Source: Mobula hypostoma
Lineage: Eukaryota
Assembly (NCBI RefSeq): GCF_963921235.1
Contig: NC_086108.1
Location: forward strand, 74,650,001-74,714,000
DNA: 64,000 nt
Direction of reading: 5' to 3'
The position numbers and the translations under genes are program-made. Position 1 is the stretch's first letter, and each line of letters opens with the position of its first letter. This document shows, piece by piece, positions 22,827-52,180 of this stretch. The notes under the pieces were generated by a model. That model ran no database searches. It had not been told where the DNA came from and was given only the letters and a program-made list of their open reading frames with translations.

Positions 22827-22829
22827 TCC

Positions 22830-28605: not shown

Positions 28606-30142
28606 AAGATAGCTTAGCCTCTTTTACTGTAAAGAGAATGAAATAATTGTTACTCCAGATCCGATGCAACACAAAAAAACAAACCCCACAAAAGATAAAG
28701 AACACAATAGCAGTACTAAAAAAACACACACACATTTTAGCCTTGACTGACAAATAGAACTGCAGGCCACAAATGTACATTATTTATTAGAATGGTATTT
28801 GGACTAAGCTGTATCTATATCACAGTCCTCTGAAATTGTCATACTGAAATAAAGTGTCATTAAAATGATTAAACATTCAGTTTCTTTAAATATGTTACAA
28901 AATTTCTGTGTGGCATTTTTTTTTGTAACTTGAAATTTCTGAATGAATGTTTTTATTCTTTTATTTAAAATAATCCTTACCACATAAAATTCCCTTAAGG
29001 CCAAAAACTGTTAAACAGAATTAGCCATGTACAGTTGTACGCTTAACTGTTTTCCCTTTATGATGTGAGGTTAAAGATTACTGGAATGTTGAAAAAAAGT
29101 GCTTGACCCTACCTCCAGATTCAGTTTACTGATGCTGCCCAGATACTGGGCTTCACATGGCTTGATTTATGATGCTTCTCAAATTGGGGTCAGTCTCTTG
29201 CCAGTTTAAGAGCAATGACATTGCAATAACTCAAATGCCTTTTCTCATTATAATATGTTCTAATGCATAGTAGCTTGGAGATTTTAAGCAATAGAAGCAT
29301 TTTTCCAAGACTGTAGCAATAAAATGGTCAATTGTTCTTGAAAAGTGCTTTTTCAACTAATTCCCAGCACAATGCTCTTTGTCTGTGGATTATGCCCCTA
29401 ATGTTATTAATAACAGAGCAGAGTGAAACTCTGAGTTGTATTGAGAAGCGAATACTGCATGGCATACAGCACTCATCTGACAGGCCTCAAAACAAGAAAA
29501 AGATTCTGGGAATATATACAAAGTGCTACTCATGGAGGGGCACAGACTTCTTGGCTGGGAATTGAATTACTTCCGTTGGGATTTGCTTTGATTTAAAAAG
29601 GGTTAAATATTGAAATTTAAAGGAAGGCTCCTTTCCTTTAATGTCAATAAATTCTTAAGAATCAAAGTAAGATTACAATGTAGAAATTCATATCAGTTGT
29701 ATATGCTTACAGGCAATGCAGGAGCAGCTGCAAGTGGCTTCCACTTTATAAACTTGGGTTCATTGAAGTTAGTCAAACTGAATTTCGGAAGCAGCCGATG
29801 ATATATGATCATTCTGAAATTTTGTAATTTAGCATAATGACCTAGAATGAATTTCAGCTTTACAGTCCCATGGAAATTTTAGTGTACTTATTAGGTAGTG
29901 TTAGAATGATGCAGATACTTTGACACAGTGTATAAACCTTTAGTTGCAACTGAGGCCCAGTGCTTCAGAGACTTGCCTTGGGTTTGTAAGGTGGTTAAGG
30001 GAGAGGCACAACTAGGAGTCAGACACCAGTTGTATCCATGTGATAGGGTCTATTTGGGGCAATAATGGGAGGCAAACAAGGAGAATGGCCTTTGAGTGTC
30101 TGTGGTCGATGGGAATATTTGAAGCTAACAACTGAAGGAGAA

Positions 30143-30332
30143 CAACAGGAATTCTGCAGATGCTGGAAATTCAAGCAACACACATCAAAGTTGCTGGTGA
30201 ACGCAGCAGGCCAGGCAGCATCTGTAGGAAGAGGTGCAGTCGACATTTCAGGCCGAGACCCTTCGTCGACTGCACCTCTTCCTACAGATGCTGCCTGGCC
30301 TGCTGCGTTCACCAGCAACTTTGATGTGTGTT
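30143..30332. mobile_element. 190-bp palindromic Penelope pLTR insertion
   Basis: Perfect 68-bp inverted arms 30177-30244 and 30265-30332 with a 20-nt loop; 13-bp TSD aactgaaggagaa at 30130-30142 and 30333-30345. Confidence 0.92.
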
Positions 30333-31134
30333 AACTGAAGGAGAAGCTGGAATCTAGAAACCGGGAGGGCACGGGAACTGGCCAAGGATTGCAGGGCTGA
30401 GAGTTAGAAAATCAGCAGGATGAGTGGGACAATTTCAAGGTTGTGTGTGGCTACAGATCAAGGAGTTAGCGACAGCCTGGAGATCAGAAGGTTGGCTCAA
30501 AGCAACTGATGGGATGTGGGACAAATAGGCCATTTATCATATTGTTTGGGAAATAAATTGATCTCCAATTGCACAATGCTGAAAAATTAGTGTTATAGAA
30601 TTTAAATTATCGGCATGTTCATTTTAGGCTTTCAAATATTTCACTAAGTTATTGGAAATATGAGCTGTTACAGACTAGTGAGGGCAGCAGGGCCCACTGT
30701 AATCTTGATCTATAACATATCCAGTGGTGTAACTCATTGACCAAAGAAAGTGCTTTAAGAATTGTGAAATAAATAGACCAAGAACTGTCAAGTATAAATT
30801 CAAAGCCAAATAATCAGGAAAGGAAGGGACTTTTAAAATGTTGTCTAATAATGACTTGCAGCCAAAAGGGTAAACATTTATAATTGTTGAAGTTCTTGGC
30901 AAAAAAAAATTGATTGCTTGTCATTATCAATCATCACATAATTTTAGGTGTAATTGGTAGGTCACATCTAATCATTAATATTTAAGGCCATTGAAATGTG
31001 TTTGATTTTTTTTTTCTTTTTAAACTACATTGTGCCTATCAAAGTTCAAAATCTCTGTTGTCAAGTACACTGTCTAGCACTGCTTTGGGTGGAGGTCTAT
31101 CCACAGACCAGTGTAGCTGTAGTTCAAACTACAA

Positions 31135-32785
31135 TATAGATTATAGGAGCAGAGCTATGCCATTTGACCCATCGAGTCTTCTCCGCCATTCAATCATGTC
31201 CGATCCTTTTTTTTCCCCTCTCCCTAGTCTTCACCCTGTAACCTTTGATGCCGTGGCCAATCAAGAATCTATCAATCTCCACCTTAAATACGCCCAAAGA
31301 CCTGCCCTCCATAGCAGCCCGTGGTTACAAATTCACCACCCTCTGGCTAAAGAAATTTTTCCACATCTCTGTTTTAAATAGACGCCCCTCTATCCTGAGG
31401 CCCCGATATTACTTCTCCAGCCTTATTTTCTAATGGTTGTATAACCACTCTCATCTCTTACTTTTTATAGACATGAAAAAGCTTTTTCTATCCACCTTGA
31501 AATTGTTTGCAGCTTGCTTTCATATTTAATCTTTTCTCTCCTAATGATTTTTTTAGTTGCTTTCTGTAGGTTTTTAAAAAGCTTCCCAATTCTCTATCTT
31601 CCTGCTAATTTTTGCTTTGTTGTATGACCTCTCTTTTGCTTTTACATTAGCTTTGATTTTCCATGTCAATCACAGTTGCACTATTTTGCCATTTGAGTAT
31701 TTCTTTGTTTTTGGAATACACATGTCCTACACCACCTTCATTTTTCTCAGAAACTCATGCCATTGCTGCTCTGTTGTCATTCCTGCCAGCAGTTCTTCCA
31801 ATTTACTTTGGCCAACTCCTCTGTAATACCACTGTAATTGACTTTACTCCACTGGAATACTGCTACATCAGACTTTACTTTCTCCCTATAATTTCAAGTT
31901 GAACTCAGTCATATTGGGATCACTGTCTTCTATGGGTTCCTTTACCTTAAGCTCCCTAATTGCCCCCGGTTCATTACGTAACACCCATTCCAGACTCAAT
32001 GACAAACTGCTCTAAAAGCCATCTCGTAGCCATTCAACAAATTCACTGTCTTGAGATCCATTACCAAACTGATTTTTCCCAATCTATCTGCATGTTAAAA
32101 TCTCCCATGACTATCTTAACATTGCCCTTTTGACATCTTTTCTATTTTCCATTGTAATCTGTAGTCCACGTCCCAGATACTGTTTGGAGGCCTGTATATA
32201 ACTGCTATCAGGGTCCTTTTACCCTTGCAGTTTCTTAACCCACAAAGATTCAACATCTTCTGATCCTATGTCACATCTTTCTAATGATTTGATGCCATTC
32301 TTTACCACTACTCTGCCTACCTTCCTATCCCTCCATTACAATGTGAAACCTTGCACGTTCAGCTCCCAACTCCAACCATCCTTCAGCCATGATTCAGTGA
32401 TAACCACAACATCATATCTGACAATCGGTAATAATGCAACAAGATCATCCACTATATCCATTATATTTCGTAAATTGAGATAGAACACTTTGAGTACTGT
32501 ATTTGCTACCCTTTTTGATTCTGCATCAAATGTACTGATACTCACCCTGCTGGCTGCAATTTTGTCCAATCATCTGCCTTCCCTTCCTGACAGTCTGATG
32601 GCATGCTATCTTTGCTTTTTTACCATCCGTCCTATCCTGTGCCCCTTCACACCAGTTCTTATTCCCCTGCCAAATGAGTTTAAACCTTCCCCAACAGCTC
32701 TAACAAACCTGCCTGCAAGAATATTGACCCCCCTCGGATTCGGGTGCAACCCGTCACTTTTGCAGAGGTCATACCTCCCCCAGTG
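31135..32785 (-). mobile_element. Internally deleted CR1 (3' tail fused to AP-endonuclease region and ORF1 end)
   Basis: ORF LKVFYLNLRNI...YDVVVITESWL...LNVQGFTL (APE N-terminus); CR1 tail at 31135-31400; no RT core between them. Confidence 0.75.
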
Positions 32786-34084
32786 AGATCAGACTCAAAT
32801 AATCACTTTATAGTTGACCATGGATTCATTGAGTGGAATAGTACTACTCATAATTTTTAATTCAAACAAAATATTAATCAGTGTAAATATTAAAATAAAT
32901 AATAGTGTTGCAAGCTCTATTTTAACTGAAAGGACCAACGAATACCCTGCCAGCATTGAGGTCTTGTCACTAGAATAGCAACTGTGTGCTGTGCTGTTTT
33001 CTGTTTGCTGTTTATCTTGCTGTGCACTACATGCATTTTGAATTATATCTCATGAACATATTTATGGTAACGTTTTGTTTTATATGCTGTGTGTGATATG
33101 TTGTGGGTACACCGTGCTCTAGAGTAATGCTCTTTTGTTTGTTTATATGTAGTCAGATGACACCTCCCTTAAAGTCTTTGATATTGTTTGCTTCTGAAGA
33201 GTTCCTTGGTAACCTATTCCATCTATCTTAACTCCTGCATAAACAAAATTCTTTCTTTTAACTTGGTAAATTTTAATAAATCTAAAGGTCTGAATTATAA
33301 ACGTCAAAGACTAAAAGCATTAGAACCAGTGTCTGGAATTAATTTATGTGGTGTGACTTCAGGGTGATTCTCTCATACCCACACATTATTAGAATAAGAA
33401 TCATGAAATGTTTTGAAAATAATTTACTGTGTAATTAAAGCCCCAGTGGTTTTGATCCTTTGTATTACACTTAGTGACGCCAAATAGCTCTAGTCTCCAG
33501 TGAATACTTTACATGGTTTGGCACATGTACAACAGTTGCTGTTTATTAGGCCTTGAGCATTTGTTTGAACTTTGCTCTCTATTTACAGGAGATACCATCA
33601 GCTACCACATTTTGTGTACATTGCCCTACATGTGGAAGCATTCTCATATTGGCCAACAGCAAGTCCGCAGTTTTCCTTGATAGCGATGATGAAAAATGAT
33701 CTGTTTCACAGCCCTTAATGTGTTATAAGGTTTCTCACATTATCCTTCAGTGGTGTTTTATATGCAAATGTCTTTTACTCTTGATCTTGGCTCTATACAA
33801 TCATTTTGTTTTAGCACTTGTATTGATCAATTGAATTTATGTTTCCATTATTTTCTATGCGTATCCTATTTGAAAGCACACTACCAATCAGAATAACAAT
33901 GCTCACCATTAGGCAGGACTTACACAAACAAGCATTTTTTGCTGTACCCTGTTTATTACACGTTTTGCAAATTCAAGTCAACTCTGATTCCCTCTGGCCC
34001 CTTGGTATCATGTTCTGCTAAATCTGCACCATGAACTGAAACAGGCCTTGGCCAGCAGTTCCATTTTATGATGATGGATTAACA

Positions 34085-34485
34085 GAAAGAAAGAACTTGC
34101 ACTTAAATAATGCACTTTACAGCCTCAGGATGTCTCAGCTCTTCTCTGTCAAAGGGGTACGTTTTCATTGTGATCACTTTTGTAATATAGGCAAACACAG
34201 AAGTTAATACATAACAGACTTGCACAAATAACGTGAGATAAATTATCCAAAAATTTGTTTTAATGATATGGGATAAGGAATAAATATTGGTTTGCACGCC
34301 TGGAGATATCTCTACTCGTCTTCAAATGGTATCAGGGTACTTCTTCCATCTGCCTACGAGGCAGCCAAATGCTTGAATTAATATCTCATGCAAAATTTTG
34401 GGATATCTAATACTGAAGAATTTTGCCAATACTACAGGGAAGTGTCAGCCGATTTTATGTGATAAATCTCTGGAATTAGATGCAA
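34085..34485 (-). mobile_element. Ancient Deu-SINE-like element (SacSINE1/AmnSINE1-related)
   Basis: Collinear with the recalled reverse complement of the Deu-SINE consensus: aagaacttgcac..., ataaatattgg, ctcgtcttcaaatggt, atctcat, agtgtcagcc. Confidence 0.6.
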
Positions 34486-34889
34486 CAGATCACATAAATA
34501 CAATTTTGAAATAAAAACATACTGATGAAAGATTAACTGAATATAATCATGTTAGCATTAGCTGCTTGCTTCCAATAGTCGGTGCAAAATTTATGGTACA
34601 GGCATAATCACAATTAACTGTTTATTTAATCTCTTCAAGGTAGATAAATTACTGGTCAGAATTATAAACAGATTTTAAAAAAAGCTTTGGAATTTCTTCC
34701 AACAACCAACAACCAACAACCAGAGTGTTAGCTTACAATTGTGTGCCTGTGAATGTTATTTTCAATTCTAGTCACAACTTCTTGCTCAATTAATATTCAA
34801 GTTTAAACCGGTAAATAGCAAGGAACATGTATGCCACAAAAGTGCCAGTCAATAGCTATTTCAACAAGCAAGAATTTAACTACTTCTCT

Positions 34890-35985
34890 ATACATTCAAG
34901 ATTGTTGAATGTAATTTCCAGTGTACAAGTGTAAATGAGAATGAAATAATTGCTACAGCAAATCCAAAGCAGCAATTCAATGCAGGGGTGGGGTGGGGGG
35001 AGGATGTAGTTGGGTGGGTTAGTGGGTGGACGTGTTGATCAGTCTTACTGCTTGGGGTAAGTAACTGTTTTAGAGTCTGGTGGTCCTCGTGTGGATACTA
35101 CATAACTTCCTCCCTAATGGGAGTGTGGCAAACAATCCATGCGCTGGGTGGGTGCGATCCTTCATGATATTGCTGGTCTTTTTAAGGCATCTTTCTGTAT
35201 ATATGTCCTTGGTGGTGGGTAGGCTGGTGCCAGTGATGCGTTGGGCAGTTTTGTCTACCTGTTGTACAGCTTGCCTGTCCACTGCAGTGCGGTTTCTGTT
35301 CCATGCAGTGATGCAGCATGTTAGGATGCTCTTTTCTCTGGAATGTCATGAGTATTGATGTGCATAGTCCAGCTCTTTTTAGCCTCCTTAGAAAGAGGAG
35401 ACTTTTGGTGAACTTTCTGAATTGTGTAGGGTGCATTCTGGGACCATGAAAGATTGTGTGATATGTGCACTCCCAGGAGTTTAAAAATGCTCGCAACTTC
35501 CACTGCTGTGCTGCTGATATAAAGATCATTTGAGTGGTGCAGGTTTTCCTGAAGTCAATAACCTTTGTCTGGTTGACACTGAGGAAGAGAGTGCCTGCCT
35601 GGCATCAGGCTGCGTACTTTTCTACCACCTCTCTGTAGGCTGTCTCATCGCTGTTGGTGATGAACCCCACTACTGTCATGCCATGGGCGTACTTGACGAT
35701 GTGATTACTTTGGTGTTTGGTCAAGTAGGCATGTGTACAGCAGTGGGCTCAGCAGACAGCCCTCAGGGGCACCCATGTTGAGGATGATGGGGAGGGAGGA
35801 GTGGTTGTGTAGCCAGACTATCTGAGGTTCGTTGGTCAGGATGCAGTTGTGTAGGGTGTATTTAAACTGAGGTAGGAGTTTGTTCACCAAGATCTGTGGG
35901 ACAATAGTGTTGAATGCTGAAACAAAATCCTGAAACAACACTTTGACATAAGTGTCTGTTTTTTTCAGGTGTGCATGACAAATGC
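34890..35985 (-). mobile_element. Rex1/Babar-like LINE (second subfamily)
   Basis: ORFs LFQDFVSAFNTIVPQILVNKL...GAPEGCLLSPLLY, FKLLGVHI and TAQRITGTSLP. Confidence 0.85.
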
Positions 35986-37725
35986 TGTGTCATTTGTTGT
36001 AGAGCAGTTCTGTCTGCCATTTATTTTTGTTTGCTTTAACAAACTTTTATGGAAAATATTTCTGTAAAATGTGGAGAAACTTGATTCATTCATGAATGCA
36101 TGATATTAAAGTAATCTCTTGGTGATAAAGAGATGTGTGGTTATTTTTCAACTAAGAACAAGGGACATTTCTATTCTACTGAACTCTTGTGTGCTAATTT
36201 ATTAAACCTCTGTACTTTTTATACCAAATTAAGAAAGTTTATTTAATTTGGGCTTGAGGGAAAGTAGCTGAGTGAGGAGAAGGTGGGAAATGTTTTCCCT
36301 GCCTTAGAGACAAAACATATGAGACTGCAGTAATTCGTTCATGGATACATCACTAGGGATGTTAGAAAACCATGTCTTTATTCTGGTGTGGCTTTTTCAG
36401 AGCTTTAGTCAGTATGTAGGTTTTGGCTGAATCAAATAATGATTGTGAGATATTGGTAGTTTGTTTTCATTTAGTCTCTGTGTGTTCTGTTGCACAGTGT
36501 CACTGTTGATTATAAATTGCTTATTAAAAATAATTCATTAGTTTTGTAGAGCAATATTGAGTCTTGGAGTTGGGAGGATCGTATAAATGTAAACTTAATT
36601 ATTCAGGAGTTAATAATATTGCCGTGACTTTTTTTGTTCACCTCGACATTTTAACGTACAGTGTCTCTTTATCTTGGCTGCTTGGAGTTCGAAAGCGGAT
36701 AAAAACAAATCTTTTCAGTACGCACTTGGAGCAAGCAGTTTAGTGTGGCAGAACACATCCCATTCTCTTGTGCACTTAACCATACTCTGAAAATTCCAGC
36801 CCATTCCTAACATTGATGATGTTACAGACTATCAGCATTATTGTTACTTTATTGAACAAGATAATCTTTCAATGCTGAAAACTTGTCTGAATGAAAGCTG
36901 TTTTAAATTGTGACAAGTGTTCTCCTAAACTATTTTAAATAACTCAGAATTGAATAAACAATTTTCATTATGCATTTTTTTTGCCAAACATAAAGTAGGT
37001 TGGTGAGCTTAGCTTTAGCTTTGTTGCTCAATTGTGCTGGTAAGTAATAAGTTTCACAATGACAATGATTAATTTTCTAAGATGCAAATCTCAATAAATA
37101 ATTTATGGAGATACTTTTATCAGATGTAACCCCCAGTGGCTTATGATTTTAACATATTTCTCATGAATTATATCTACATTTATATTATGAACGTACAAAA
37201 CAAAACCTAAAAGAAAGCTCAGAGTTACATAAAAATGTTTAACGTTTAGAATAATCTTCTCAGAAGTGTTGGAGATTAATTAACATATTAAATAGCATAA
37301 ATATGTGGTTGTAGGTTATTTTGAATTTATTGCTGTTGGTGGTTAGGAATTGAAGAAAAAGTTAATGATTAAATAACATGACCAAAAACAGCTTTCACTA
37401 ATATCATAAGCACAACCTAATTCTGAGTGCTAGTCTGTGACATAAACCTTTCTCCTTGCATTTCCATACAGAGAATTCTTGGATGCAATCCTCCATGAAT
37501 ACCAAGAGGAAATCTGTTTAAAAAGAATTTTACATTAGCTTAAACCAGAGAGAAATTGCTCAATTGATTTAGTTCTGTAAATATATTGATCTCTGTCTTT
37601 GCACTGTACTGCTGTCACAAAACAGCAAATTTCATGTCACGTGTCAGTGATAATAAATCGGAGCAACACACATCAAAGTTGCTGGTGAACGCAGCAGGCC
37701 AGGCAGCATCTATAGGAAGAGGCGC

Positions 37726-37761
37726 AGTCGACGTTTCAGGCCGAGACCCTTCGTCAGGACT
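37726..37761 (-). ncRNA. Minimal type I hammerhead ribozyme in the pLTR
   Basis: Minus strand reads AGTC-CTGACGA-AGGgtctcggCCT-GAAA-C-GTC/GACT: complete core, helix I AGUC:GACU, 3-bp helix II, palindromic ACGU helix III. Confidence 0.85.
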
Positions 37762-38062
37762 AACTGAAGGAAGAGTGAGTAAGGGATTTGAAAGTGGGAG
37801 GGGGAGGGGGAGGGGGAGATGCAAAATGATAGGAGAAGACAGGAGGGGGAGGGATAGAGCCGAGAGCTGGACAGGTGATAGGCAAAAGGGGATACGAGAG
37901 GATCATGGGACAGGAGGTCCGGGAAGAAAGACGGGGGAGGGGGGTGACCCAGAGGATGGGCAAGAGGTATATTCAGAGGGACAGAGGGAGAAAAAGGAGA
38001 GTGAGAGAAAGAATGTGTGCATAAAAATGAGTAACAGCTGGGGTACAAGGGGGAGGTGGGGC

Positions 38063-38990
38063 CTAGCGGAAGTTAGAGAAGTCAATGTTCATGCCATCAG
38101 GTTGGATGCTACCCAGACGGAATATAAGGTGTTGTTCCTCCAGATGTGGAATTAAAATGTGTGGCCACTGGGAGATCCTGCTTTCTCTGGCGGACAGAGC
38201 GTAGATGTTCAGCAAAGCGGTCTCCCAGTCTGCGTCGGGTCTCACCAATATATAAAAGGCCACATCGGGAGCACCGGACGCAGTATATCACCCCAGTCGA
38301 CTCACAGGTGGAGTGATGCCTCACCTGGAAGGACTGTTTGGGGCCCTGAATGGTGGTAAGGGAGGAAGTGTAAGGGCATGTGTAGCACTTGTTCCGCTTA
38401 CACGGATAAGTGCCAGGAGGGAGATCAGTGGGGAGGGATGGGGGGGACGAATGGACAAGGGAGTTGTGTAGGGAGCGATCCCTGCGGAATGCAGAGAGAG
38501 GGGGGGAGGGAAAGATGTGCTTAGTGGTGGGATCCTGTTGGAGGTGGCGGAAGTTACGGAGAATAATATGTTGGACCCGGAGGCTGGTGGGGTGGTAGGT
38601 GAGGACCAGGGGAACCCTATTCCTAGTGGGGTGGTGGGAGGATGGAGTGAGAGCAGATGTAGGTGAAATGGGGGAGATGTGTTTAAGAGCAGAGTTGATA
38701 GTGGAGGAAGGGAAGCCCCTTTCTTTAAAAAATGAAGACATCTCCCTCGTCCTAGAATGAAAAGCCTCATCCTGAGAGCAGATGCGGTGGAGACGGAGGA
38801 ATTGCGAGAAGGGGATGGCATTTTTGCAAGAGACAGGGTGAGAAGAGGAATAGTCCAGATAGCTGTGAGAGTCAGTAGGCTTATAGTAGACATCAGTGGA
38901 TAAGCTGTCTCCAGAGACAGAGACAGAAAGATCTAGAAAGGGGAGGGAGGTGTCGGAAATGGACCAGGTAAACTTGAGGGCAGGGTGAAA
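38063..38990 (-). pseudogene. PLE RT C-terminus/thumb, Cys-rich linker and GIY-YIG endonuclease (truncated, frameshifted)
   Basis: LKFTWS...LPFLDL...YYKPTDSHSYLDYSSSHP; CKRNKCYTC; VIYCVRCSRCGLLYIGET..RFAEH. A deletion near 38143 (relative to the 23 kb copy) shifts frame before EEQHLIFRLGSIQPDGMNIDF. Confidence 0.92.
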
Positions 38991-39849
38991 GTCTCGGCCT
39001 GAAACGTCGACTGCGCCTCTTCCTATAGATGCTGCCTGGCCTGCTGCGTTCACCAGCAACTTTGATGTGTGTTGCTTGAATTTCCAGCATCTGCAGAATT
39101 CCTGTTGTTTGATAATAAATCGGATTCTGGTTCAAAAGGTGGACAGTTTCCATTATATGTAGCTGGTGATGAGAGAGACCAAAGGATCAAGGCACTACAG
39201 CCAATCGCCAGTAACAGCATGTATCCCCCATGCCACCCACGAAGCACCCTGAATCCCACATCTGAGTGCTGAGTGGCTAAGCTGCTCATCCTGGTTTGCT
39301 TAACTCCAGATCTCATTATCAACCTCTCCACACCATATCTCATTGTCAACCTTTCCACACCAAGCTGTTGGTAATTCATGGCTACAAAAGTGCAGTGGAG
39401 GACATAAATGTGGGCCAGGGTTCCTGGACCTAGGTTCCCTTCTCAGCAGTTGGAACAGGAAGCAGGACGAGGGACTTGTATCAGTTCATGGCATTGTACT
39501 GGCCACAGCAGGGGCTTGTGCCATGTTTTAGCACACTATATCCCAAAACAAAATTCTGTTTTGGCCCCTTTTGGCGTGTATTCCATTAATGATCTTAATC
39601 CTGTGAGTGTATTATTTGTCCTGTACAAAGTGTCAGTTCAAGTCACCAGGCCTTGGATGAAGTCTTTCCCAGCTACAAAGAGAGAAAGTGGCAGAGACTC
39701 TGACATCTGTGGCTATAAGGCCTCTGCTAAGGGATTGGAACACTGCTGCTGATCATCATTGTCTAAAAAGAGAGGCAAGAATAAACTGAACTATTACAGA
39801 TGGTTAATTAAACTTCTGTGGTGGGCAGAATAAACACTCCTGTAAGGAG

Positions 39850-40010
39850 GACACAGATAAATCCCAGTCAGTTGGCATGTATTTCTTAAGGAAAGATTAT
39901 TTCTAGCTAACTTGATTGAAATAACAAGGAGGATTAATGAAGGCAGTGCATTTAATGTGTATGTAGACTTTGGCGAGGCTTTTTGGCAAAATTCCACTAG
40001 GCAAACTGAT
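39850..40010 (+). mobile_element. Old CR1 RT fragment
   Basis: Degenerate SQHGF..G.SCL.NLIE...VYVDF..AF.K motifs. Confidence 0.55.
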
Positions 40011-40521
40011 TAGAATTGCACTAATTCAGGTAAATACATTTCTTTCAGAGCTTAAAGGCAGTGTGAGTGAGCAATTCTGCTGAATAATTCAATTTTCTGT
40101 TGTTTTCAGATCTCCAGCACTTTCAGTTTATCGGTTTTAATTTTGAATAATTAGAATACCTTGATCTGGCAATTCCACAAAGCACAGATTTTATGCCTAC
40201 ACAGTAATGTTCATAGATTTACTGTAGTTGTGAAATAGTTATTACAGGTAATTAACAGCTACAGTGGAGCTGATCCAAACTCCTGGATGCCGATCAAAAA
40301 TAGATTATTTCTTTTTCCTGCCATTTGAATGATATGTTGGCACTTTTACTTAAAAGTGAAAGAGCAAGGGATTTTATCAGGAGACTTAATATGTAAAAGA
40401 TATTTAGACCATTTAGCTATCACCATGATGCCTTTATGGGAGATTTTTAACTTGATGGTTTCGGTTCAGGAAGCACCTGTGGAGGGAGAAGGTTAATTGA
40501 TCAGATTGATAAGTTATTATT

Positions 40522-40630: not shown

Positions 40631-40701
40631 TTTTTTACTTTGTTTCCATGTGTCTATCTTTTGTTGGACAATTGTGTCCAGCTCACTTGGTTACTGAATT
40701 T

Positions 40702-41197
40702 ATATTCAGTGGCCAGTTTATTAGGTACAGGAGTGGAACCCAGTGTGGTCTTCTGCTGCTGTTTCCCATCCACTTCAAATCTTGATACGTCTTGCATTTA
40801 GAGATTCTCTTCTGCACATCATGGTTGTAATATACGGTCATTTGCCTTCCTATCAGCTTGAACCAGTTTGGCCATTCTCCTCTGACCCCTCTCATTAATG
40901 AGGCCTTTTCTCCCACCAAACAGCTGCTCACTGGATGTTTTTTTGTACCATTCTCTGTAAACTCTAGAGGCTGCTATATGTGAAAATCCCAGGAGATCAG
41001 CAGTTTTTGAGATGCTCAAACCACCCTGTCTGGCATTCCAAGGTCAAAGTCACTTGAATCACAGTTCTTCCCCATTCTGATGTTTGGTCTGAAGAACAAC
41101 TGAACCTCTTGACCATGTCTGCATATTTTTAGGCATTGAGTTGCTGCCACATGATTTGCTGATTAGATATTTGCATAAACAAGGTGTACAAGTGGCT
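40702..41197 (-). mobile_element. Tc1-like non-autonomous element with transposase N-terminal remnant
   Basis: Left end attcagtggccagtttattaggtac, right end aagtggctgctgggtgta; minus ORFs SISKTADLLGFSHIAASRVYREW...RGQRRMAKLVQADRKA and MGNSSRRPHWVPLL. Confidence 0.8.
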
Positions 41198-41710
41198 GCT
41201 GGGTGTATGTTGGTCTTAAACAGCAGTACAAAGTTAGTGATATAAGCTAGTGGGTGGCTTATCAATCTGCCATAGTTTCTATTTCTATTGAAGTTATTGG
41301 ATGAGATTATAAGTAACCAGCTGATTCATTCTGTCTGTTTTGTGTTGCTGTCCAAGGTTAATTTCATTTCTATTGTATCTTTAGTTGATATTTTAACATG
41401 CAAGAAAGTAAGTAATATTCAAACAATTACACCAATTAGATCTAGTTTCAGGGTAATAGCTGAATGAGACCTGCTTTAGAGCAGCCTGAATAACTTTCCG
41501 CAGTGGCTTCGTACTTAGACTTTTTATTTAATAAACTTTTCTCCCCAACTTAGCCATCCTTATGAATTATCTGGACATGAAAGTTATTTTTTTTAGTCAT
41601 TTTAATACCAAAACGTGTTTTAAATCATAATTAGATCATTAATGGCCAATGGTATATGTAATGTATGGATATATTTCTTTTAAATAGACCTATTTAACCA
41701 ATAGACCAAA

Positions 41711-41785
41711 TTTAACCAATTTCCCCCAGGATCAATAAAGTATGACTATGACCATGGCTCTGACTCTGACTATGACTATGACTAA
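41711..41785 (+). mobile_element. Extremely truncated non-LTR 3' end with (TATGAC)n tail
   Basis: aatttcccccaggatcaataaagtatgactatgaccatggctctgactctgactatgactatgact. Confidence 0.6.
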
Positions 41786-42539
41786 AGCAATTGATCCTCC
41801 CCTTAGCACTGTTGTCTGCACATGTGCTGTTGTCTACGCATGCACATTGCTTCTCTGTCTCTGTGTGTCTCTCTGTCTCGTGAATTCACCAGTTAAAGCC
41901 GTCAACTGCGTGGGTGCTTTTATTTAATTGATATGAACTTGCGTACAGACACAATACTGTTCTTGGAATTCGTTCTTAATTTTTGGGGATATTACCCAAT
42001 TTGAAATAATTAATGGGTCCAAATGATTGATTTAAAAGCAAAAAAGCAATTAAATTACTCTTTTAAGATAGTAGCTGTTGAATTTCTGTGACTCTCTGTA
42101 GCTTGTCCATTGAAACTTGAATGAAGGAACCTACAAGGTACTGTAATGGTGCCCATAATTGCATGCAGTTTCATAAATTTAGCCTTTAAACCACTGAAGT
42201 ATAAAAGAAACAAGCTACAGCACAGCAATATTCCTGTCAAGAACAAAAGCTGTCTGGCATTCTGAAAAGCATAGATTTGGCTAATTCTGTGGTTTATGTT
42301 CTGCTTAAACGGCTGATGACAGCCGTAGTTCTATGTAACAAGGGTCCTTAGGGGAAACATTTACTTTGGTGGCACAGATGTTAGATTGTATTTTCTAAAA
42401 ATAAGACTACCATAATGTAGTATGATCTTCAGTTATTTTGCCATCAATAATCTCACATACTTAATCCACTTCCAATCTCTTCCACCTACAGTCTGCTTCC
42501 AAGATATTTCACCATCCTGATTCTACTGCTGATGCAGGT

Positions 42540-43665
42540 TTCAAGATCATTTAATGTCATTTCCTGTACACAAGTGTAAAAGAGAACAAAATCATTGTTA
42601 CTCCAGCTCTAATGCAGCACAAAAAAACCCCACAAAAGATTAAAAAAACACAATAACTATAAATACATAAGATAGCTTATATACATAGACTGATTGTATA
42701 CAGGAGTGCCTGTACATCAGGTGACTGACAGGAAAGTAGTGGTTGCTGGGGATGTGGAAGGGTGTGTTAGTGGATGGAGATGTTGATCAGCCTTACTGCT
42801 TGAGGAAGTAACTGTCTTTGAGTCTTGTGGTTCTGTTGTGGATGCTACACAGCCTCTTTCCTGATGGGAGTGGGAGAAACAGTCCATGAGCTGGGTGGGT
42901 GGGATCCTAGATGATGTTAGCCACCCTTTTCCAGCACCTTTCTGTATCCTTGATGCCAGGTAGGCTGCTGTTGGAGATTCATTCCGTAGTTTTGGCTACC
43001 CGTTGTAGACCTTTCCTGGTTGCTGCAGTGCAGTTTCCGTACTGTGCAGTGATGCAGCTTGTGGGGATGCTCTCTACTGCACATCTGTAGAGTGACATGA
43101 ATATGGATGTGTAAAGTCCGGCTCTCTTCAGCCTCCTCAGAAAGCAGAGGCATTGGTGAGCTTTCCTGACTGTGGCTGATATCTTCCCGAGTCATGAGAG
43201 GTTGTGTGACACAAGAGGTACTGCAGATGTTGGAAAACTATAGTAATACACACGATGTGCTGGAGGAGCTCAGCAGGTCAGGCAGCATCTAGGGATGGGA
43301 AGAAACAGTTGACATTCCAGGCCAAGACCCTTCATCAGGACTCTGTGAGAAATGTGCACTCCCAGGAGTTTGAAACTGCTGTGCTGCTGATGTTAAGGGC
43401 TGTGTGAGTGTTACAAGTTCTCCTGAAGTCTATAACCATCTCCTTTGTCTTGCCAACATTGAGAAAGAGATTATTTGCTTGTTACCAGGCCTTGAGCTCT
43501 CCACATCTTCTCTGTAGGCTGTGGATTGTTGCTGGTGATGAGACCCATCACTGTCGTGTCATTAGACAATGTTATTAGCTGTGCAGTCATGTGTGAGCAA
43601 AGTGTACTGAAATGGGCTCAGCACACAGCCTTGGGGGTGGGGGGCATCTGTGTTGAGGATGAAGG
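42540..43665 (-). mobile_element. Rex1/Babar-like LINE (same subfamily as the 34890 copy), interrupted by a pLTR
   Basis: Collinear with 34890-35790. Confidence 0.8.
43210..43343 (-). mobile_element. Solo Penelope pLTR inserted in the Rex LINE
   Basis: Minus strand gagtcCTGATGAagggtcttggcctgGAAtGTCaactg...catctgcagtacctcttgtg; tgtga occurs on both flanks. Confidence 0.8.
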
Positions 43666-43964
43666 GGAGGGGAGAACAGTTGAGCAACCTGATTTCATTC
43701 TTTCAAATGGTTTTGTTTTCCTGTGGATTTATAATTACTGCTAGTTTACTTCAAAGCTCGAGTCATGGACTTGCAATTGTTTATGTTAGTTGTGTTGGAG
43801 ATGGCAAAGATTGCGGAGGAGATGTTGTTGCCAATCTGAGCTGACTCCGAAACGGTAGGGCACTAAGGAATGTTGGTGAACAGAAAGGCCCAAGTTCATT
43901 GTTAACTGAAAGAGGAAACACAGGTGGTGAAATAAGAATAAGACTGCACTGCACATGCCTTCAT

Positions 43965-44525
43965 ACATTGGGTCATAGAATTTATAAGAGTTATACTGCA
44001 ACTTTACAAAACCCTGGTCAGGCCACCCTAGGTGTTGTGGTTACTGCAATATAACAAGGATGTGATTGCTCTGGAGATAGTGCAGAATGTTGGCTGAACT
44101 GGAGGACTTTAGTTATAGGGAGAGAATAAGTAGAGCTTGTTTTTCCATGGATGCAAGGAGACTGAGGAGTGGCCTGATAGAAGTATATAAGATTTTGAGA
44201 GGCATAGATGGGATAGATATCAAAATCTTTTTCCCTTGGTAGGGGGTATCAAAAACAAGAGGACATAGATTAAAGTGAGAATAAGGAGTTTTGAAGAGGA
44301 TATGAAGGGTAAGTTTTTTTTTAAAAAGGGGATAATTGCTACCTAGAACCCCCTGCTAGAGGAGTTGCAGGAATCGGATACAATTACAGTGTTTCAGAGG
44401 CATTTAAATAGGCAAGGCATATTTGCCCACGTTAAGTACACATTTCTATTATGGACAAATGGGTTTCATAGAGATGACTGGCATGGTTCTAGTGGGCCAA
44501 AGGGCCTGTTTCAGTTTGTATGACC
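43965..44525 (+). mobile_element. CR1 3' fragment
   Basis: Degenerate IEFISR.VILQLYKTLVRP region and tail gtgggccaaagggcctgtttc. Confidence 0.75.
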
Positions 44526-46000
44526 ATGATATTATTTTGGCCATTCAAAGTTTATGAATAGATTTCCTCAAATAGTTACAAATTGTTGGTATACTTGATA
44601 TTTACTTTTTCCCAATGCGAATAAGGTAAATCCTCCATGGTCAAAAAATGCAAGTAATTTGAAGGCTGAAATCAAAATAAAAAATGCTGAAGGTAGGTGG
44701 CTGATCAATTTACACCTGTGAAGATACCAGCCCATCAAACTTTCAGTACAAAACTCTCTTCCTGCTCTGTGGAAGAACCTGATAATTGGATAAAAAGTCA
44801 ACAGTAGTCTTGTCTTCTTCATTCACATATTATCCTCTAGTGATGATGTGCAGAAGCCCAAGGTTAGCTTTCTCATGTATAATCTGAAAACAGTTTACTG
44901 AGTAGCCAGTTAGTAGTTTTTCTGTCATCACTAGTATTATAATAGGTTTGAGTGGTCTAATAATGAGAAAATTACTAGGTTCTTTTCCAGCATACTGAGA
45001 AATTCTGCTCTACTCAACATTAATATTTGAAATAAAATCACAGTAGACTCATTTAAACTTTAACAAATAAACAAATAAAAATGAATATAATCTGATATTT
45101 AAAAAAACTTGCATATACAGTATTTGAAAATTGAAATAACAGCTGTTCTATCCATAAGTGTAAAGAATAAGGGTGGATTCATGTATCAGGGAGAACACCT
45201 TTCTTTAGAGTTGTACTAAATCTAGATGATTAGGTGAAAATACATTAGTGGTACAATCCCATAAATGGAAAGAATATATCAAGCTGTGAGTTTAATGTAA
45301 ACAATTTTCTCTGCTAACACAATTGACCTAAAATAACAGAGCCACGTGTACATAGTATATTAAATACAACTCACAAATAGAATTCTTTCAATTCTTCTAC
45401 TTAATGTATGATAATAACTGTGGGTTTGTCATTTGTGTTGGAGTTTTACCTCCACAGCTCTATGGTTTAACAGCTGTTGAATGTAAACAGCCAAAGATGG
45501 CACAATTAAGTCAGATTGAGCCAGGGGCATAAATTTTGATTAAGCTCTTGCTTGCTCTTTAACCATGTGAATGCTGAACTACTTTTGTTAAACTTTGTGG
45601 AAAATTTATTGAATCATTTGTACCAAAAGGAGAGTTTTATGTTAAAAATATTTATGGAAAGACATTTCATCTTTTACTACGATAAATTTTCTTACTGTAA
45701 GTTACACCAAAGATTTTCTTAATTCTTTATCTCATATGTTGCAACCATCTTCACCAGGTCTGCAGGTGGCCCAATCAATTAAATGTTGCTCCCCGGGTAA
45801 GCCATTGAAAAAAATGTACTGATATTTAAGTTTTTGTTCGGCTTTAAGTGCAATCCTTAAAACGAGGAGCTGAAGTGAGCTGTAAGAGGTAGTGGTACAG
45901 GCAGATATAATTACAACTTCCACATTTGCACAGATATTTGAAGAGTAGAGTGATTATGGGCCTAACGTGTGCAAGTGGGAGTAGTGTAGATGAGCTTTGT

Positions 46001-46782
46001 CAGCAGTCCCCAACCACCTGGCCGCGGACCGGTACCAAGCCGCAAAGCATGTGCTACCGGGCCGTGAGGAAACGATATGAGTCAGCTGCACCTTTCCTCA
46101 TTCCCTGTCACGCACTGTTGAACTTGAACATAGGGTTGCCAACTGTCCCGTATTTGCCAGGACATCCCGTATATTGGGCTAAATTGGTTTGTCCCGTATT
46201 TCCCCCTCTAAGGTAGAATGTTCCTATGAAGCCTTTCGTGCCGAATTGGCGTAAAGCGAAGAAGCAATTACCGTTAATTTATATGGGAAAAATTTTTGAG
46301 CGTTCTCAGAACCAAAAAATAACCTAACAAATCATACCAAATAACACATAAAACTGAAAATAAATAACACTAACATATAGTAAAAGCAGGAATGATATGA
46401 TAACTACACAGCCTATATAAAGTAGAAATAATGTATGTACAGTATAGTCAGGAAGATGAAGGCAAAACCAATTTGCAGGGAAAAAAAATCGGCACGTACG
46501 CGCATCACGTCACGCATGTGCACATCACATGTGCACACAGGTGACTGCACAAGGCTTCATGGTCATGGTAGTCTTTCCTGGGGTAAAGTGTCCCGGGATT
46601 TGACTGCTACTTTTGTCCCTTATTTGGGAGTGAGAAAGTTGGCAGCACTAACTGTAAAAGACATGTTGAGATGAGTTTAATCCTACTTGAGCACCCCCCC
46701 CCCCACCCCCAGTCGGCCGGTCTGCAAGAATATTGTCATTATTAAACGGGTCCGTAGTGCAAAAAAAGGTTGGGGACCCCTG
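46001..46782. mobile_element. hAT-like composite non-autonomous element inserted in a CR1 tail
   Basis: TIRs cagcagtccccaacc / ggttggggacccctg; imperfect 8-bp TSD agctttgt / ggctatgt; the CR1 tail resumes across it. Confidence 0.8.
46131..46650. mobile_element. Internal TIR element nested in the hAT element
   Basis: tagggttgccaact ... agttggcagcacta inverted ends with repeated gtccc/gtcccg subterminal motifs. Confidence 0.6.
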
Positions 46783-49700
46783 GGCTATGTGGTTGACATG
46801 GACACTGTGGGCTGATGGGCCTTTCTGTACCATTCCATGGCACTATGATTACAAATTATAAGAACATAAATTTCAGATTGTGGCAAATGTATTTATTGTG
46901 GCAATGGATGGTAATATAGTTAGATCTCATAGCTCTACCTTTGGTGTAAGCTGTTTACAGACTGATCTGACTGTGAACACAGATTGATATTTACCTGGGT
47001 TGATAGGCCCCTCATATAATTACTGATAATCTAATCATGCTTTCCAGGTGTGTATTTTATTTGTTGAAAATACATAGTATTAAAAAATCCTTCAGTGAAG
47101 TCTTCATTTGAACTTCATACATTCATCTCTGTAGACATAAATTGAATTTAATATGATTCAAGCTCCTTTAACGTTCCAGAACAGGTCTAGACAGATTTGT
47201 GACCGTTTTGCCAGAGCCCACACCTACACAAACAACTTATGAAAGTGATGGTTTTCCCAAAATCAATTGTCTTAAAGAAATCCATTCAATGTTGCTGTAA
47301 GACTTACATTCTGGAAATAGGGAGTATTATAAAAATTAACCTTATCGCGAGCATTCTAGTGCTGGCAGTTTTTATATTGTTACTGTTTAATTTGGAGTTT
47401 TGCTCTGAATTGTTCACTGGAGTTTAGCAGTTCCTTTGTACCTATGACAGAATATGAACAATATTGTCCATTAATTTATCCACAGGATACAAAAACTTGA
47501 TTGAAAAATGTAAATTCTGGGAGCTGGTTTATTGCATTGCTGATTGCTTGCAATCTGATTGGCATTAATATCAAAACAGCTTGAGGCAATGGATTTGTAT
47601 TCTGAATCTAATTAGGCTTTCTCTTCTAATCTCTAAGAGTCTAGGATTAAATTCAGTGATCTGGAATATATATGAACCTTTTCTTTTGTCACTTTAATCT
47701 AGTGGTTATTTGAGCGTACAGCTCTCAAATTACAGTTGGTAGTTTGAATGCCCTTTGAACTTTCCTATCACATCTGATTGGAGGGTTTCAATTTATCTGA
47801 CAAAGTGTAAGCAACTAGGGAGTAATTTTTGCTCTTAAATCTGAATCCCTTCAAGTTTGTATGTCATTTCGCAAGAGGTTCTAGAGTGATAGAGTAAGAA
47901 AGCAGTGAAATGGGCCCTTTGGCCCACCATGTCTGCACTGACCGCTTGCACTTTACAATTGTCAGCTGACGTACCACTCAGCATACCTCTGGCATATGGG
48001 AGGAAATGAGTGACCTTTACATAATTCCACCTGGGCAGCTGCCTAGCTCAAGTTCTGAGGGTCCTGTGTATTTATGACTAAAATTTTCGGACAAAAATAT
48101 TCAAGTCAAGTGCCTGATATTTTATGATGGTTTAGTTCAAATAATTCATTTCCTTCCTCTTTACTGGAATCTATAATTTTTTTTTAGCATATTTGAGTTT
48201 ATCTTTAAGGCCTTGAAATGAACGGCAGTAATAGTTGCAAAACTCCTGCGGTTACATTTTCTAAGACTTGCACTGCCTCTCCAGCGTTAATGATGGCTTT
48301 GTGAGTTAAACTTTCAATTTCATGCATAATGAAACCTAAAGAACAAATATGGCATGACTGTTATGTTTCAATCAGGTTCCAGCAGGAGGTATTGAGATTT
48401 TCAGGAACTTACAGCACAACTTGCCAGCAGTAATGTGCAGGGCATAGAGTTTAACAAAATTTCAGGTCAATATTTTCAATCAATTCCAGAATTTTATTAC
48501 TCACTAAATACTTACTTTTGTATACTTTTTTATGGAGCAAAGTATTGCTGTGGTTTGAAAGTTATGAGGGAGAGTTGTACGAAAAATATTAGTTGCACTC
48601 GGGTTTTATTGAAGTTAAAATACGTTAGTGAGTTACATTTAACTTTGATCGAAACCTCCTGGCTTGCAGCCCAGGACCAGTTCTAAATCATGTGGTGAAA
48701 GTTTTCATAATGGAATAGGATGGGACTGAATAACTCAGCATTGTTCTTAGTAAACCAGCTGTTTCAAGTTCAATGGGTGCAAACCAACCTGGGTTGCTGT
48801 GGATTATGTATACTGAGCAGTAGTATTCAATTTACGTTCTATTCATTTATCCCCTGTGGTGTTGCACTCAGGAAGCCAAAACCAAATGTTGTCTTCAGGT
48901 GAATCAGAAGGAGGGAATAGAGTATAAATTGAACAGGGTATACAGATGCAATTTAGTGTTGATTGAAGTGTAGGTGGTTCTCTCTGGTGCAGAGTGAGGA
49001 ATGAGCAGACAAGGATGGTACAGTGTCACACTTGGCAGCAGAGTGTAATTAATGCCTGAATAGTTTATGTAGGCAGTGTCCATTATAAATGCAGGCTCAG
49101 GAAATTATAAGTGAAAACTTGATGGGAAATGCTTTCAGATGGATTTTTGTTTGGTTTGATATTTTAAACTGACCTTGGAATTTATTGCTACCCAGAGAGG
49201 CTCCATTAATGTCTTACCACTGAATATTTTGGACAGGGTCCCACCACTTGAAAATTTAGTATCATCCAAGCAAGGGCTTTGCTTGCTGTGTCAGTGCAGG
49301 TTACATGGAGAAAAAAACAGGTCAGCTGGCTTGAGTTGGAGCTCGTGGGAGAGACAGGTTGGAGTTAAGTGGATTTGGGGTAGTATGGAATGGTAATGGA
49401 TTCAGATGAGAGTCATTTTGATAGGTGATGCTGGAGCCCGTTGTCACTAGTGAAGAGTATTGGATGGGTTGCTGAGCTGCATGTCTCTAACAGAGTCAGT
49501 AAGGGTGTGATATCACAAGTGGTTGGTACACATTGTTGGGCAAAGGGTGGGGGTAATTAGGGTTGTCGATTAGATTGGAGAGGGGAAGCTAAAGGTGAAT
49601 AAGTAAGTTAAAAGTTAAAGGGAACCTGGAAAACTTAGAAGACCTTCTTTAAGTCTTGCTGCTGCTGACTAAGCAGGGTTATTTAAACCTGATTGGGTTG

Positions 49701-51479
49701 AGTGCCCACGGGCAGGAAAGTTTCTGAAAAACTAACTTTTCTCAGTATCACCCTAAATCAGCATTGTATGGGAAATGGCATCATTGCTTGCAAACAGAAC
49801 ATGAAAACACATGATGGTAAGTGCCCATAAGAATTTTTGGAATGGCAGAATTTGACCAAAAACTATCATAACTATGTTCTACTCTGGAAGGAAGTGATTT
49901 CTGCACATGCAGTGCGATGAACACCACGCTACAAAACTGAGTTTTAGGCTATTCAGGATTAATCCTTGCTCTTTTTGGGAGAGGAAATTGTTTTAGTAGG
50001 TGCTATCAGAGTAAGATGGATGTGTAATTGCAGTGTATTTGTAAGTGGTCACACACAGCTACTGTTTATTGGTGATGGTGGGAAAGAATGTTTAGTGTGC
50101 ATCAATCAAGTGGGCTGCTTAGTCCTAGATGCAGTCAGTGTTGGCGCTACTGCCTTCCAAGCAAGTCAAAAAAGAATCTGTCGCACCCTGACTTGTGCCA
50201 TTCTAGGTGAATGGAGAGAGTTTGGATATCACATTTTTATGTGGTTGCTCCATTTGGATTTCTGGACAGTGATGACCCCCGCCCCCAACACCACCAGACC
50301 TGCTTCTCAGAACTTTTCTGTTTTCATCAAACTATTCCTCATTACCTTCATGCTTTCTGAAATACTTAATTCGTATGATGTGGTTGTATGGAATGTCTAA
50401 AACGGGAATAAGGCCATGGGAACTCTCAAGAGCACTGCTAGGGATAGTGGGCACTGATACTCAGCTGCAGATGTACTAGAACAGCTATATGGTTCTGGGT
50501 TATTTGACCACAGATAGTCAAATGAGTTCTGCAAACTCATTGGCACAAAGGACCATGGTTTCACTAAATGGGAATGCAACACAAAGTTTCTATTCCCAAG
50601 CCTTGGTGCCACCTGTTTTTAAAGTATAACACATGCGAATAAAAGATGCCTAATACTTTAACAAGTGTATAAGCACTCTCATAACATTAAGCTAATGTGA
50701 CAATTACGGTAAATGTTAGTTAAGCTCCACTGAATTATATTACTGCAGCTGCCACTGTCAATATTTTTGGCTACAATTGCAATCATTATATTTCCTCTAA
50801 TCAATGTTTACATTTTTCATGATATAGTTTACAAATTAAAATGCATTCATGATTATATTGTAGATGTGATTAAATTATAATTAATTACATTTGTTTTTCC
50901 CTTTAACCGTTTGCATGCTTCATTTTCTTTGTTGATGGCGATGTTGAGAAAACTCCTATTAGAGAAAAAAAACCCATTTGTCTATGAAGACATGATATTA
51001 TTATTATTATTATTACAGAAAACCTGCAGAAATATTTGCATATTTTAAAATATGCAAATATGAACGATATGATTTTATTTCACCATTGGATCCTATATTT
51101 CCAACTCACAATGATGGGCTGAATTATGTGTTTGAGCTACAAGGGTTAACTATAGAATCAATTTCAAAACAGTAATCTGGTTTTTAGAGCCCATAAAGAT
51201 ACAAAGAAATACTATATTTGTCCAAATTCAGTCCTATTTGACAGTGCTATTCAGAGCAGGAATGGTAGGTATTGGATGTTGCACAAATGTGTTTGAGTTA
51301 CGGTTATCACTGAAGGAAATGCATATTGCATTAATCTTGCACCTTACCTGGTTTGTGTGGTCATTGAGACAGACACTGAGTGTAGTGAAACATATCATCC
51401 CAACTTTGATATATTTTACAATTGTGTATATACCTTAGCACCTGTTGAATTTAATTGAAGAACTGTGAATGGTGAATGT

Positions 51480-52180
51480 CCACTCATATTAATTCCTCTT
51501 CCTATTCCCATCCAGACATGTCAGTCTGTGCCCCCCCGCCCCCACTGCTGTGATGAAGCCACACTCAGGTTGGAGGAGCAACACCTTGTATTCCGTCTGG
51601 GTAGCCTCCAACCTGATGGCATGTACATCGATTTCTTGAACCTCCGGTAATGCCCTCCACTTCACCATTCCCCATTCCCATCTCCCTCTATCACGTTGTC
51701 TCCTTATCTACCCATCATCTTCCTCTGGTAACACACATCAAAGTTGCTGGTGAACGCAGCAGGCCAGACAGCATCTGCAGAATTCCTGTTGTTTGCGTTT
51801 TTAAAAATCTTCCTCTGGTGTTCCTCCCCCTTCCCTTTCTTTCATGGTCTTCTACCCTCTCCTATCAGATTCCTCCTTCTCCAGCCCTTTCTCTCTTTCA
51901 CCAGTTGACTTCCCAGCTCTTTACTTCACCTCTCCCTCTTCACCTCTTCACCTCTCCTGGTTTCACCAATCACCTACTACCTTGTATTTCTTCATTCTCC
52001 CCCACCCCCACCTTCGTACTCTGACTTCCCATCTTTTTCCCTCCAGGACTGATGAAGGTTCCTGGCCCAAAACAGCAAGCGTTTACTCTTTTCCATAGAT
52101 GCTACCTGACCTGCTGAGTTCCTCTGACAATTTTTGTGTGTTGCTGTGATTTCCAGCATCAGCAGATTTTCTCTTGTTTT
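51480..52180 (+). mobile_element. Older Penelope-like element 3' part
   Basis: ORF CDEATLRLEEQHLVFRLGSLQPDGMYIDFLNLR; pyrimidine-rich UTR; pLTR with CTGATGA at about 52049 but caaaa in place of GAAA. Confidence 0.85.
51730..51806. mobile_element. 77-bp minimal insertion of the young Penelope family
   Basis: 13-bp TSD atcttcctctggt at 51717-51729 and 51807-51819; inverted pLTR arm joined to the forward tail through cagcatct. Confidence 0.88.

Follow-up and report, generated by a model that had tools for sequence, protein, structure and literature searches.

Two-armed, one-tailed insertions of a Penelope-like element in Mobula hypostoma and a candidate origin by asymmetric two-ended priming

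The window analysed here, i.e. a stretch of 64,000 nucleotides of the Mobula hypostoma genome (assembly GCF_963921235.1, contig NC_086108.1, positions 74,650,001 to 74,714,000), contains three insertions of a Penelope-like element (PLE), each of which consists of two oppositely oriented arms, one with and one without a tail, enclosed by a single target-site duplication (TSD). These copies are real, truncated insertions of a PLE, and the best reading of their structure, which we consider probable, is asymmetric two-ended target-primed reverse transcription resembling the twin or dual priming of L1. The two-armed, one-tailed architecture and the two reverse transcriptase (RT) start sites flanking the tail are already in print in the cited portions of Arkhipova 2013, Craig 2021, and Frangieh 2024, and the window itself adds just three more examples of the architecture. 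The pairing of unlike ends, the association of a long TSD with two arms, and the similarity between target and element RNA at the tail-less end are added here as a modest, testable lead.

The 1447-bp insertion (37663-39109) is flanked by exact 15-bp TSDs (37648-37662 and 39110-39124). Its tail-less arm (37663-38992, minus strand) carries a 5'-truncated RT thumb, a Cx4CxxC linker, a GIY-YIG endonuclease (EN), the 3' untranslated region (UTR), and the pseudo-long terminal repeat (pLTR), and stops at the short, i.e. tail-less, end site; its tailed arm (38991-39109, plus strand) contains 85-86 bp of the pLTR followed by a 34-nt tail. The 190-bp insertion (30143-30332) lies between exact 13-bp TSDs (30130-30142 and 30333-30345) and has its tail on the left, the tailed arm (30143-30267, minus strand, 125 nt) preceding the tail-less arm (30264-30332, plus strand, 69 nt). 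The 77-bp insertion (51730-51806), located within the 3' UTR of an older PLE, is also bounded by exact 13-bp TSDs (51717-51729 and 51807-51819), and its tail-less arm (51730-51776, minus strand, 47 nt) is joined to a tail-only arm (51769-51806, plus strand) made up of an 8-nt microhomology, the tail, and 13 extra bases. An exact repeat of at least 13 bp was found at 5 of 3000 random position pairs. The positions, lengths, and exact TSDs that had been given for these insertions in a first-pass annotation of the window were all confirmed, as were the near identity of their common sequence (97-100%) and the outward orientation of the 3' ends of the two opposed pieces in all three.

On the scale of the right arm of the 1447-bp copy, the tail-less ends of the three copies map to a 4-nt window (39073-39076), and the tailed ends of two of them map to 39107-39109. 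The 77-bp copy extends 13 bases beyond the long (tailed) end; these bases have no second occurrence in the window and could derive from the element or represent filler. The annotation had proposed two fixed ends and a difference only at the internal junction. One tailed and one tail-less end were indeed present in every copy, but the ends are windows rather than points, spanning 3-4 nt here and ~20 nt at the tail-less end of a second family (see below), and 'fixed' is therefore too strong; similarly, the junctions do vary, but the 77-bp copy also differs at its outer end. Microhomologies of 2 nt (38991-38992), 3-4 nt, and 8 nt were identified at the junctions of the 1447-, 190-, and 77-bp copies, respectively, and the continuation of the left arm in the 1447-bp copy was fixed by loose contig ends at 38992 in two sequencing runs. 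The arms overlap by 86 bp in the 1447-bp copy and by 69 bp in the 190-bp copy, and nowhere except at the 8-nt junction in the 77-bp copy; no inverted repeat was listed at the last, which is thus not a palindrome. The inverted repeat ends ~31-34 nt short of one terminus, so the tail lies outside it. Each arm of the 1447-bp copy and of the 77-bp copy holds sequence that is absent from its partner, and these two copies are therefore not simple self-copies. The same two private changes occur in either arm of the 190-bp copy, the short arm of which is contained entirely in the long one, 20 nt from the turn.

The long arm of the 1447-bp copy encodes the RT thumb, followed by the Cx4CxxC linker (query positions 198-206) and a GIY-YIG domain with CCHH residues (C241, C244, and H263 in the endonuclease); the match to PF01541 (E=0.001) is weaker than the cut-off of Pfam. 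Fifty-three longer protein relatives were obtained, many with the RT domain PF00078, and the nearest named ones are shark proteins (64-65% identity). As in endonuclease-positive (EN+) PLEs, RT and, at the C terminus, a GIY-YIG domain are combined in one open reading frame (ORF), of which this copy holds the thumb onward only, and an inverted 5'-truncated copy with a 30-40-bp tail at one end lies inside the TSD. Craig 2021 (PMC8557442), in the part cited, defines the Neptune clade by a CX2-5CxxC linker between RT and EN and by a CCHH motif in EN, both of which are found here, whereas the zinc finger in the linker is absent from Penelope and Poseidon; under these definitions, the presence of the linker excludes Penelope and Poseidon, and Neptune fits. 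The element thus appears to be a high-copy, Neptune-type PLE, as judged from the linker and CCHH motifs of a copy without the RT core, the linker being present also in Nematis. A private internal deletion near 38143-38146 in the GIY-YIG region was indicated by loose contig ends, and this copy, being also 5'-truncated, is dead.

A minimal hammerhead motif of the kind described in the literature (PMC4209133, in part) is predicted in the pLTR at 37726-37761 (minus strand; core match at 37757), where CUGANGA and GAAA boxes, a GUC site, and a short pairing stem I were recognized; the core motif and stem agree with the hammerhead expected in the pLTR of an EN+ PLE. An Rfam scan at the gathering score yielded 0 matches, including to hammerheads, and the hairpin formed by the pLTR plus tail was no more stable than those of shuffled sequences (z=-1.24; 23/200). 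The short arm of the 190-bp copy, counted from its first unambiguous base, opens at the predicted hammerhead cut (30264-30268), a single case that is blurred by the 3-4-nt microhomology. No full-length copy with direct pLTRs is present in the window, and one contig joint (37761 to 30163) hints at tandems elsewhere. Searches of viral, metagenome, and prokaryote collections with pLTR patterns gave no matches.

The same two-armed layout was found in a second, unrelated PLE family, which was recovered by a protein-alignment search as the best 80 of 487 metagenome-contig loci (33-55% protein identity); these represent animal host DNA. Forty-six matches to an end profile were obtained, from which four (two at contig edges, one piece of a split arm, and one internal junction) were dropped. 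The 42 arm ends scored comprise 18 short, 18 long, and 6 other ends, or 19, 17, and 6, respectively, if the TSD of locus L080, both ends of which are overshot by the profile, is followed. The profile was built from long-ended copies and is blind to longer ends; the bases beyond the long end differ among copies. Eleven candidate two-armed loci were reduced to nine: L014, whose two arms lie at contig edges, and L029, in which the inverted repeat does not belong to the pLTR, were removed. Among these nine, a full tail is combined with a tail-less end in seven and a partial tail of 31 nt with a tail-less end in one (L080); L050 has two tail-less ends. A tailed and a tail-less end are thus paired in eight of the nine (binomial p=0.02 under independent choice); the young copies of the window, taken alone, give 3/3 mixed ends (p=0.125).

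Long TSDs were associated with the two-armed state in this family: a TSD score of at least 9 was reached by 8 of 9 two-armed copies vs 1 of 13 one-armed copies, the latter with 9 bp (Fisher p=2e-4; L016, whose 3' end is cut short, was left out of the one-armed set), and the TSDs bounding the eight are 13-16 bp long with 0-2 mismatches. The boundaries of the one-armed copies are less certain than those of the two-armed ones and may represent secondary deletions; one-armed copies with TSDs exist in D. virilis (PMC2377424, in part). The tail-less ends of the second family are spread over ~20 nt, the tail is ~55-65 nt long, and the junctions, read by eye, show microhomology of a few bases, blunt joining, or 1-22 nt of filler. 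The forward, ORF-bearing arm is tail-less in 6 of 8 loci and tailed in 2. In arm-to-arm identity, the partner arm ranked 1st-6th among 22-43 other copies at 15 loci (1st in 4/15), which places the two arms in the same subfamily and does not separate one RNA from two. Three further observations were made in this family. At L033 (2611-3072), a later 460-bp insertion splits the inverted arm nearly exactly at the tail-less end site. L014:420 and L028:480 share an identical inverted junction with filler (92% identity) and are probably one old insertion seen twice. The inverted arms at L067:415-1415, L019:191-627, and L022:215-524 are more complex and include upstream ORF segments, L067 being composed of three joined pieces.

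For each tail-less end, the far TSD copy was compared with the continuation of the element beyond that end, using a null that includes inward extension of the TSD; the comparison covered tail-less ends only. In eight loci of the second family, 43 of 64 bases match vs 19.2 expected (bias-corrected null; 0 of 200000 draws), and the three young copies of the window give 12 matches in 24 bases vs 6.8 expected (p=0.026). The match is imperfect (~5 of 8 bases) and shifts with the end position of the individual copy; within the limits of a small sample of eight old copies, this speaks for pairing rather than for a fixed preference in target choice.

Contigs from four sequencing runs (organisms A, B, C, and G) were aligned to 29700-40200, a segment that excludes the site of the 77-bp copy; those of organism G cover none of the insertion sites and are uninformative there. 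The PLE family is very abundant, the summed contig depth over the element being ~10^6 vs 15-30 in the flanks of organism A, a figure that is not a copy number. In organisms B and C, the alignment of one flank contig each starts precisely at 39110, where the right TSD begins, with 20 unlike letters in front; as judged from these alignment coordinates, this fits an empty site for the 1447-bp copy of the sort that the annotation had proposed to look for in relatives. One contig of organism B, the flanks of which differ by ~1-2%, begins 22 nt inside the 190-bp copy and crosses its right junction; organism B therefore carries this copy, which, being common to a related organism, is older than the 1447-bp copy. 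These two insertions, both called young in the annotation, accordingly differ in age. Contigs of organism A cross three outer junctions.

Fifteen of 2085 joints, with sides of just 18-27 letters, were examined, and 8 of these 15 connect the two arms, left to right, in head-to-head orientation, at eight distinct position pairs and with an overlap of 0-3 nt. Four of the eight enter the right arm at 39075 or beyond and thus contain only the tail, like the 77-bp copy. Inner arm ends cluster directly 5' of the hammerhead core in both families, i.e. at 37758-37760 in 4 of the 8 joints and at L050:1670, L080:637, and L078:944 in 3 of the 9 two-armed loci; this pattern would fit a stalling of cDNA synthesis at the fold of the ribozyme.

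The structure, TSDs, end windows, junction microhomologies, and family of these copies are read directly from the DNA; nicking, priming, and joining would proceed as follows. The endonuclease of the element would nick the two target strands with a stagger of 13-16 bp. One nick would prime at the tail end of the RNA, and the other ~35 nt upstream (55-75 nt in the second family), probably aided by loose pairing between the target end and the RNA. Both cDNAs would stop early and be joined internally by microhomology, end-joining, or a short filler; the 8-nt junction of the 77-bp copy would use an inverted repeat built into the RNA, so that the two cDNA ends would be complementary there. A single RNA template would explain both the end asymmetry and the tailed arms that stop within the tail, and overlapping arms on a single RNA would need strand displacement or a tandem transcript. 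In favour of two-ended priming, the outer ends of all three young copies lie at windows resembling RT start sites within one long TSD. Priming of both strands at two RNA positions with internal joining had already been proposed in the first-pass annotation. It remains the best explanation, with independent support from the second family and from the joints, but with windows in place of positions; the proposal is probably right in outline and was largely anticipated by the in vitro work of 2024 (PMC11167929, in the part cited).

Several points weigh against two-ended priming. No intermediate was observed. The similarity between target and element could result from an endonuclease preference for pLTR-like targets instead of pairing. 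In vitro, the start-site choice of PAc, a Poseidon-clade element assayed on a defined target, is the same on both strands, and its priming site is not homologous to the cut DNA (PMC11167929, in part). Copies with a single arm (13 loci plus 5 window copies) are no rarer than those with two, and may reflect another outcome or deletions that came later. Within the second family, L050 has two tail-less ends with ~25 nt of filler, L080 has just 31 nt of tail, and the loci were chosen for their RT/EN sequence and are ~8-15% diverged. The short sides of the joints were flagged as unreliable, and the joints are leads, not proof. The most recurrent joint (37713 to 39025; 10 contigs, 3 organisms) is a near-perfect palindrome, as is also predicted by self-priming, in which a single cDNA (or antisense template) would turn back and serve as its own template, with endonuclease resolution of the intermediate accounting for the asymmetry of the tail, as suggested by Arkhipova 2013 and Craig 2021. 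The two private changes common to both arms of the 190-bp copy and the inclusion of its short arm within the long one are likewise expected from folding back, and palindromes at the inverted junctions of rotifer PLEs, together with the wording 'EN-mediated resolution', point the same way (PMC3846280 and PMC8557442, in part). We nevertheless consider this origin unlikely: the 77-bp copy and the tail-only joints, whose arms do not overlap, could not be produced by it, the unique sequence in each arm of the 1447-bp copy would need a second template, and it does not predict the target-RNA similarity at the tail-less end.

Alternatively, the RNA might be transcribed from an already inverted master locus, with RT starting once and jumping across an RNA hairpin; the variable junction would then be an internal deletion and the far end the end of the transcript. 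In D. virilis, the active form met most often is a partial tandem flanked by inverted repeats (PMC2377424, in part), and the arms within one copy are identical. This route, however, requires the transcript to end at a fixed point, either the antisense tail or the pLTR end, and the ORF arm being tail-less in six loci and tailed in two would call for two kinds of master with precise ends, making it quite improbable. That the short palindromes are themselves mobile units, MITE-like (miniature inverted-repeat transposable element) or otherwise non-autonomous, and are copied whole is very improbable; a few joints do recur or have several-fold contig depth, but three junctions and three lengths occur in three young copies, the TSDs are 13-15 bp long, the two termini do not form an inverted repeat, and the 77-bp copy has no inverted repeat at all. 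We give equally little credence to two independent insertions in succession at one site, a deletion at a later time, or an assembly error in a high-copy repeat. The abundance of the family is extreme and the internal junctions were not directly seen in the listed contigs, but each pair of arms is enclosed by one perfect TSD, outer junctions are crossed by contigs (three in organism A and the right junction of the 190-bp copy in organism B), and the same layout recurs in unrelated contigs.

Older PLE copies are also present in the window. A two-armed copy at 18907-19062 consists of a short, degenerate tail-less arm (~20 nt) and a tailed sense arm, with an exact TSD of only 7 bp and ~72-79% identity to the young copies. 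It had been annotated at 18905-19060 as having the same layout; the two arms are there, but the bounds are shifted and the support that it provides for the layout is weak. The host of the 77-bp copy is a one-armed 3' fragment (51470-52180, plus strand) that retains the endonuclease end, UTR, pLTR, and tail. Neither an inverted arm nor a TSD above chance was found in the five older pLTR copies (near 10226, 11136, 22800-23580, 43211, and 51470-52180), and the two-armed layout is therefore not universal. In the one-armed pLTR-plus-tail copy at 10226-10329, the 3' half of the hammerhead has been swapped for an 8-nt inverted copy of downstream sequence, generating a small palindrome. Two degenerate pLTR/hammerhead pieces, head to tail and ~65 nt apart, form an old mini-tandem at 58584-58712 (minus strand). 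Other repeats include a young repeat of unassigned family, present as a near-identical 78-bp tandem (18430-18592) and, in inverted orientation and at 95% identity, at 7337-7414, and two further high-copy repeats by contig depth (31104-32858 and 34895-35796) that are common to all four organisms compared.

The closest described systems include the canonical EN+ PLE insertion unit. Arkhipova 2013 (PMC3846280) describes, for Pen2a_Av/Pen2_Av of Adineta vaga, a pair of inverted pLTRs, one bearing the tail, in one TSD, and puts forward self-priming with an antisense template; the scheme in Fig. 2 of Craig 2021 (PMC8557442) often places the tail at one end only. The copies described here share with this unit the inverted 5'-truncated copy at the 5' end, the inverted pLTRs in one TSD, and the often one-ended tail of 30-40 bp, whereas the TSDs are 8-10 bp there (PMC3846280) vs 13-16 bp here and the tail of the second family is ~55-65 nt. 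In the portions cited, both papers favour self-priming or endonuclease resolution and do not quantify the pairing of ends, the association of TSDs, or the similarity between target and RNA; Craig 2021 regards the way in which PLEs generate inverted one-tailed insertions as undefined, and the cited part of Frangieh 2024 (PMC11167929) leaves it open. A curation guide repeats the known PLE structure. In the openly accessible literature, viewed mostly as titles and abstract openings and with two key reviews lying outside it, no paper was found that applies twin priming to PLEs or reports target homology at one end; the papers listed for the two subjects together deal with telomerase RNA, human transposable elements, and L1, as judged by title and abstract opening, and Frangieh 2024 was the one on-topic paper listed from 2023 on.

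Frangieh 2024 (PMC11167929, in part) used PAc, a Poseidon element of Anolis carolinensis, in vitro: two RT start sites flank the tail, both target strands are nicked and extended, a dimer is predicted, and a hammerhead lies upstream. PAc differs from the window element in belonging to Poseidon rather than Neptune, and the main text of that paper does not deal with inverted products or their junction. More tentatively, and with more doubt than confidence, PLE integration may be asymmetric twin priming conserved across animals, in which the start at the tail end is defined by the protein, the second nick, 13-16 bp off, starts by imperfect pairing in the upstream window, and only the two-ended route gives a long TSD. 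If so, the tail would mark where two primers had sat on the template, and the absence of primer homology in vitro would apply to just one of the two ends. The statistics added here give specific predictions for genome-wide counts or for the existing in vitro system.

L1 twin and dual priming, the latter with two RNAs, were defined in Meyer 2010 (PMC2837659, in part). The two inverted fragments in one TSD, the annealing of the second nick to the RNA, and a microhomology or end-joining junction are common to L1 and the asymmetric two-ended priming proposed here, and homology between target overhang and RNA was found at the internal priming site. L1 twin priming differs in three respects: the PLE copies lack a poly(A) start, their second site falls only within a window immediately upstream of the first, and as a rule the PLE arms overlap rather than being separated by an internal deletion; non-overlapping arms with an internal deletion are seen just in the 77-bp copy and in 4 of the 8 joints. 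MITEs are resembled in that the copies are short, TSD-bounded, and, for the 190-bp copy, self-complementary in dot-plots. The annotation had warned that palindromes resembling terminal inverted repeats (TIRs) could be misannotated as MITEs. This holds only for copies with overlapping arms, but 'palindrome' is too strong for the 77-bp copy, and the termini are not true TIRs as the tail lies outside them; nothing specific on such misclassification appeared by title or abstract opening among the matches listed (20 of 39). MITEs have TIRs reaching both ends and uniform copies, whereas the copies described here have a tail outside the inverted repeat, variable lengths and junctions, long TSDs, and the sequence of a retroelement 3' end. 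In annotation, such short two-armed stumps belong under PLEs, not DNA transposons.

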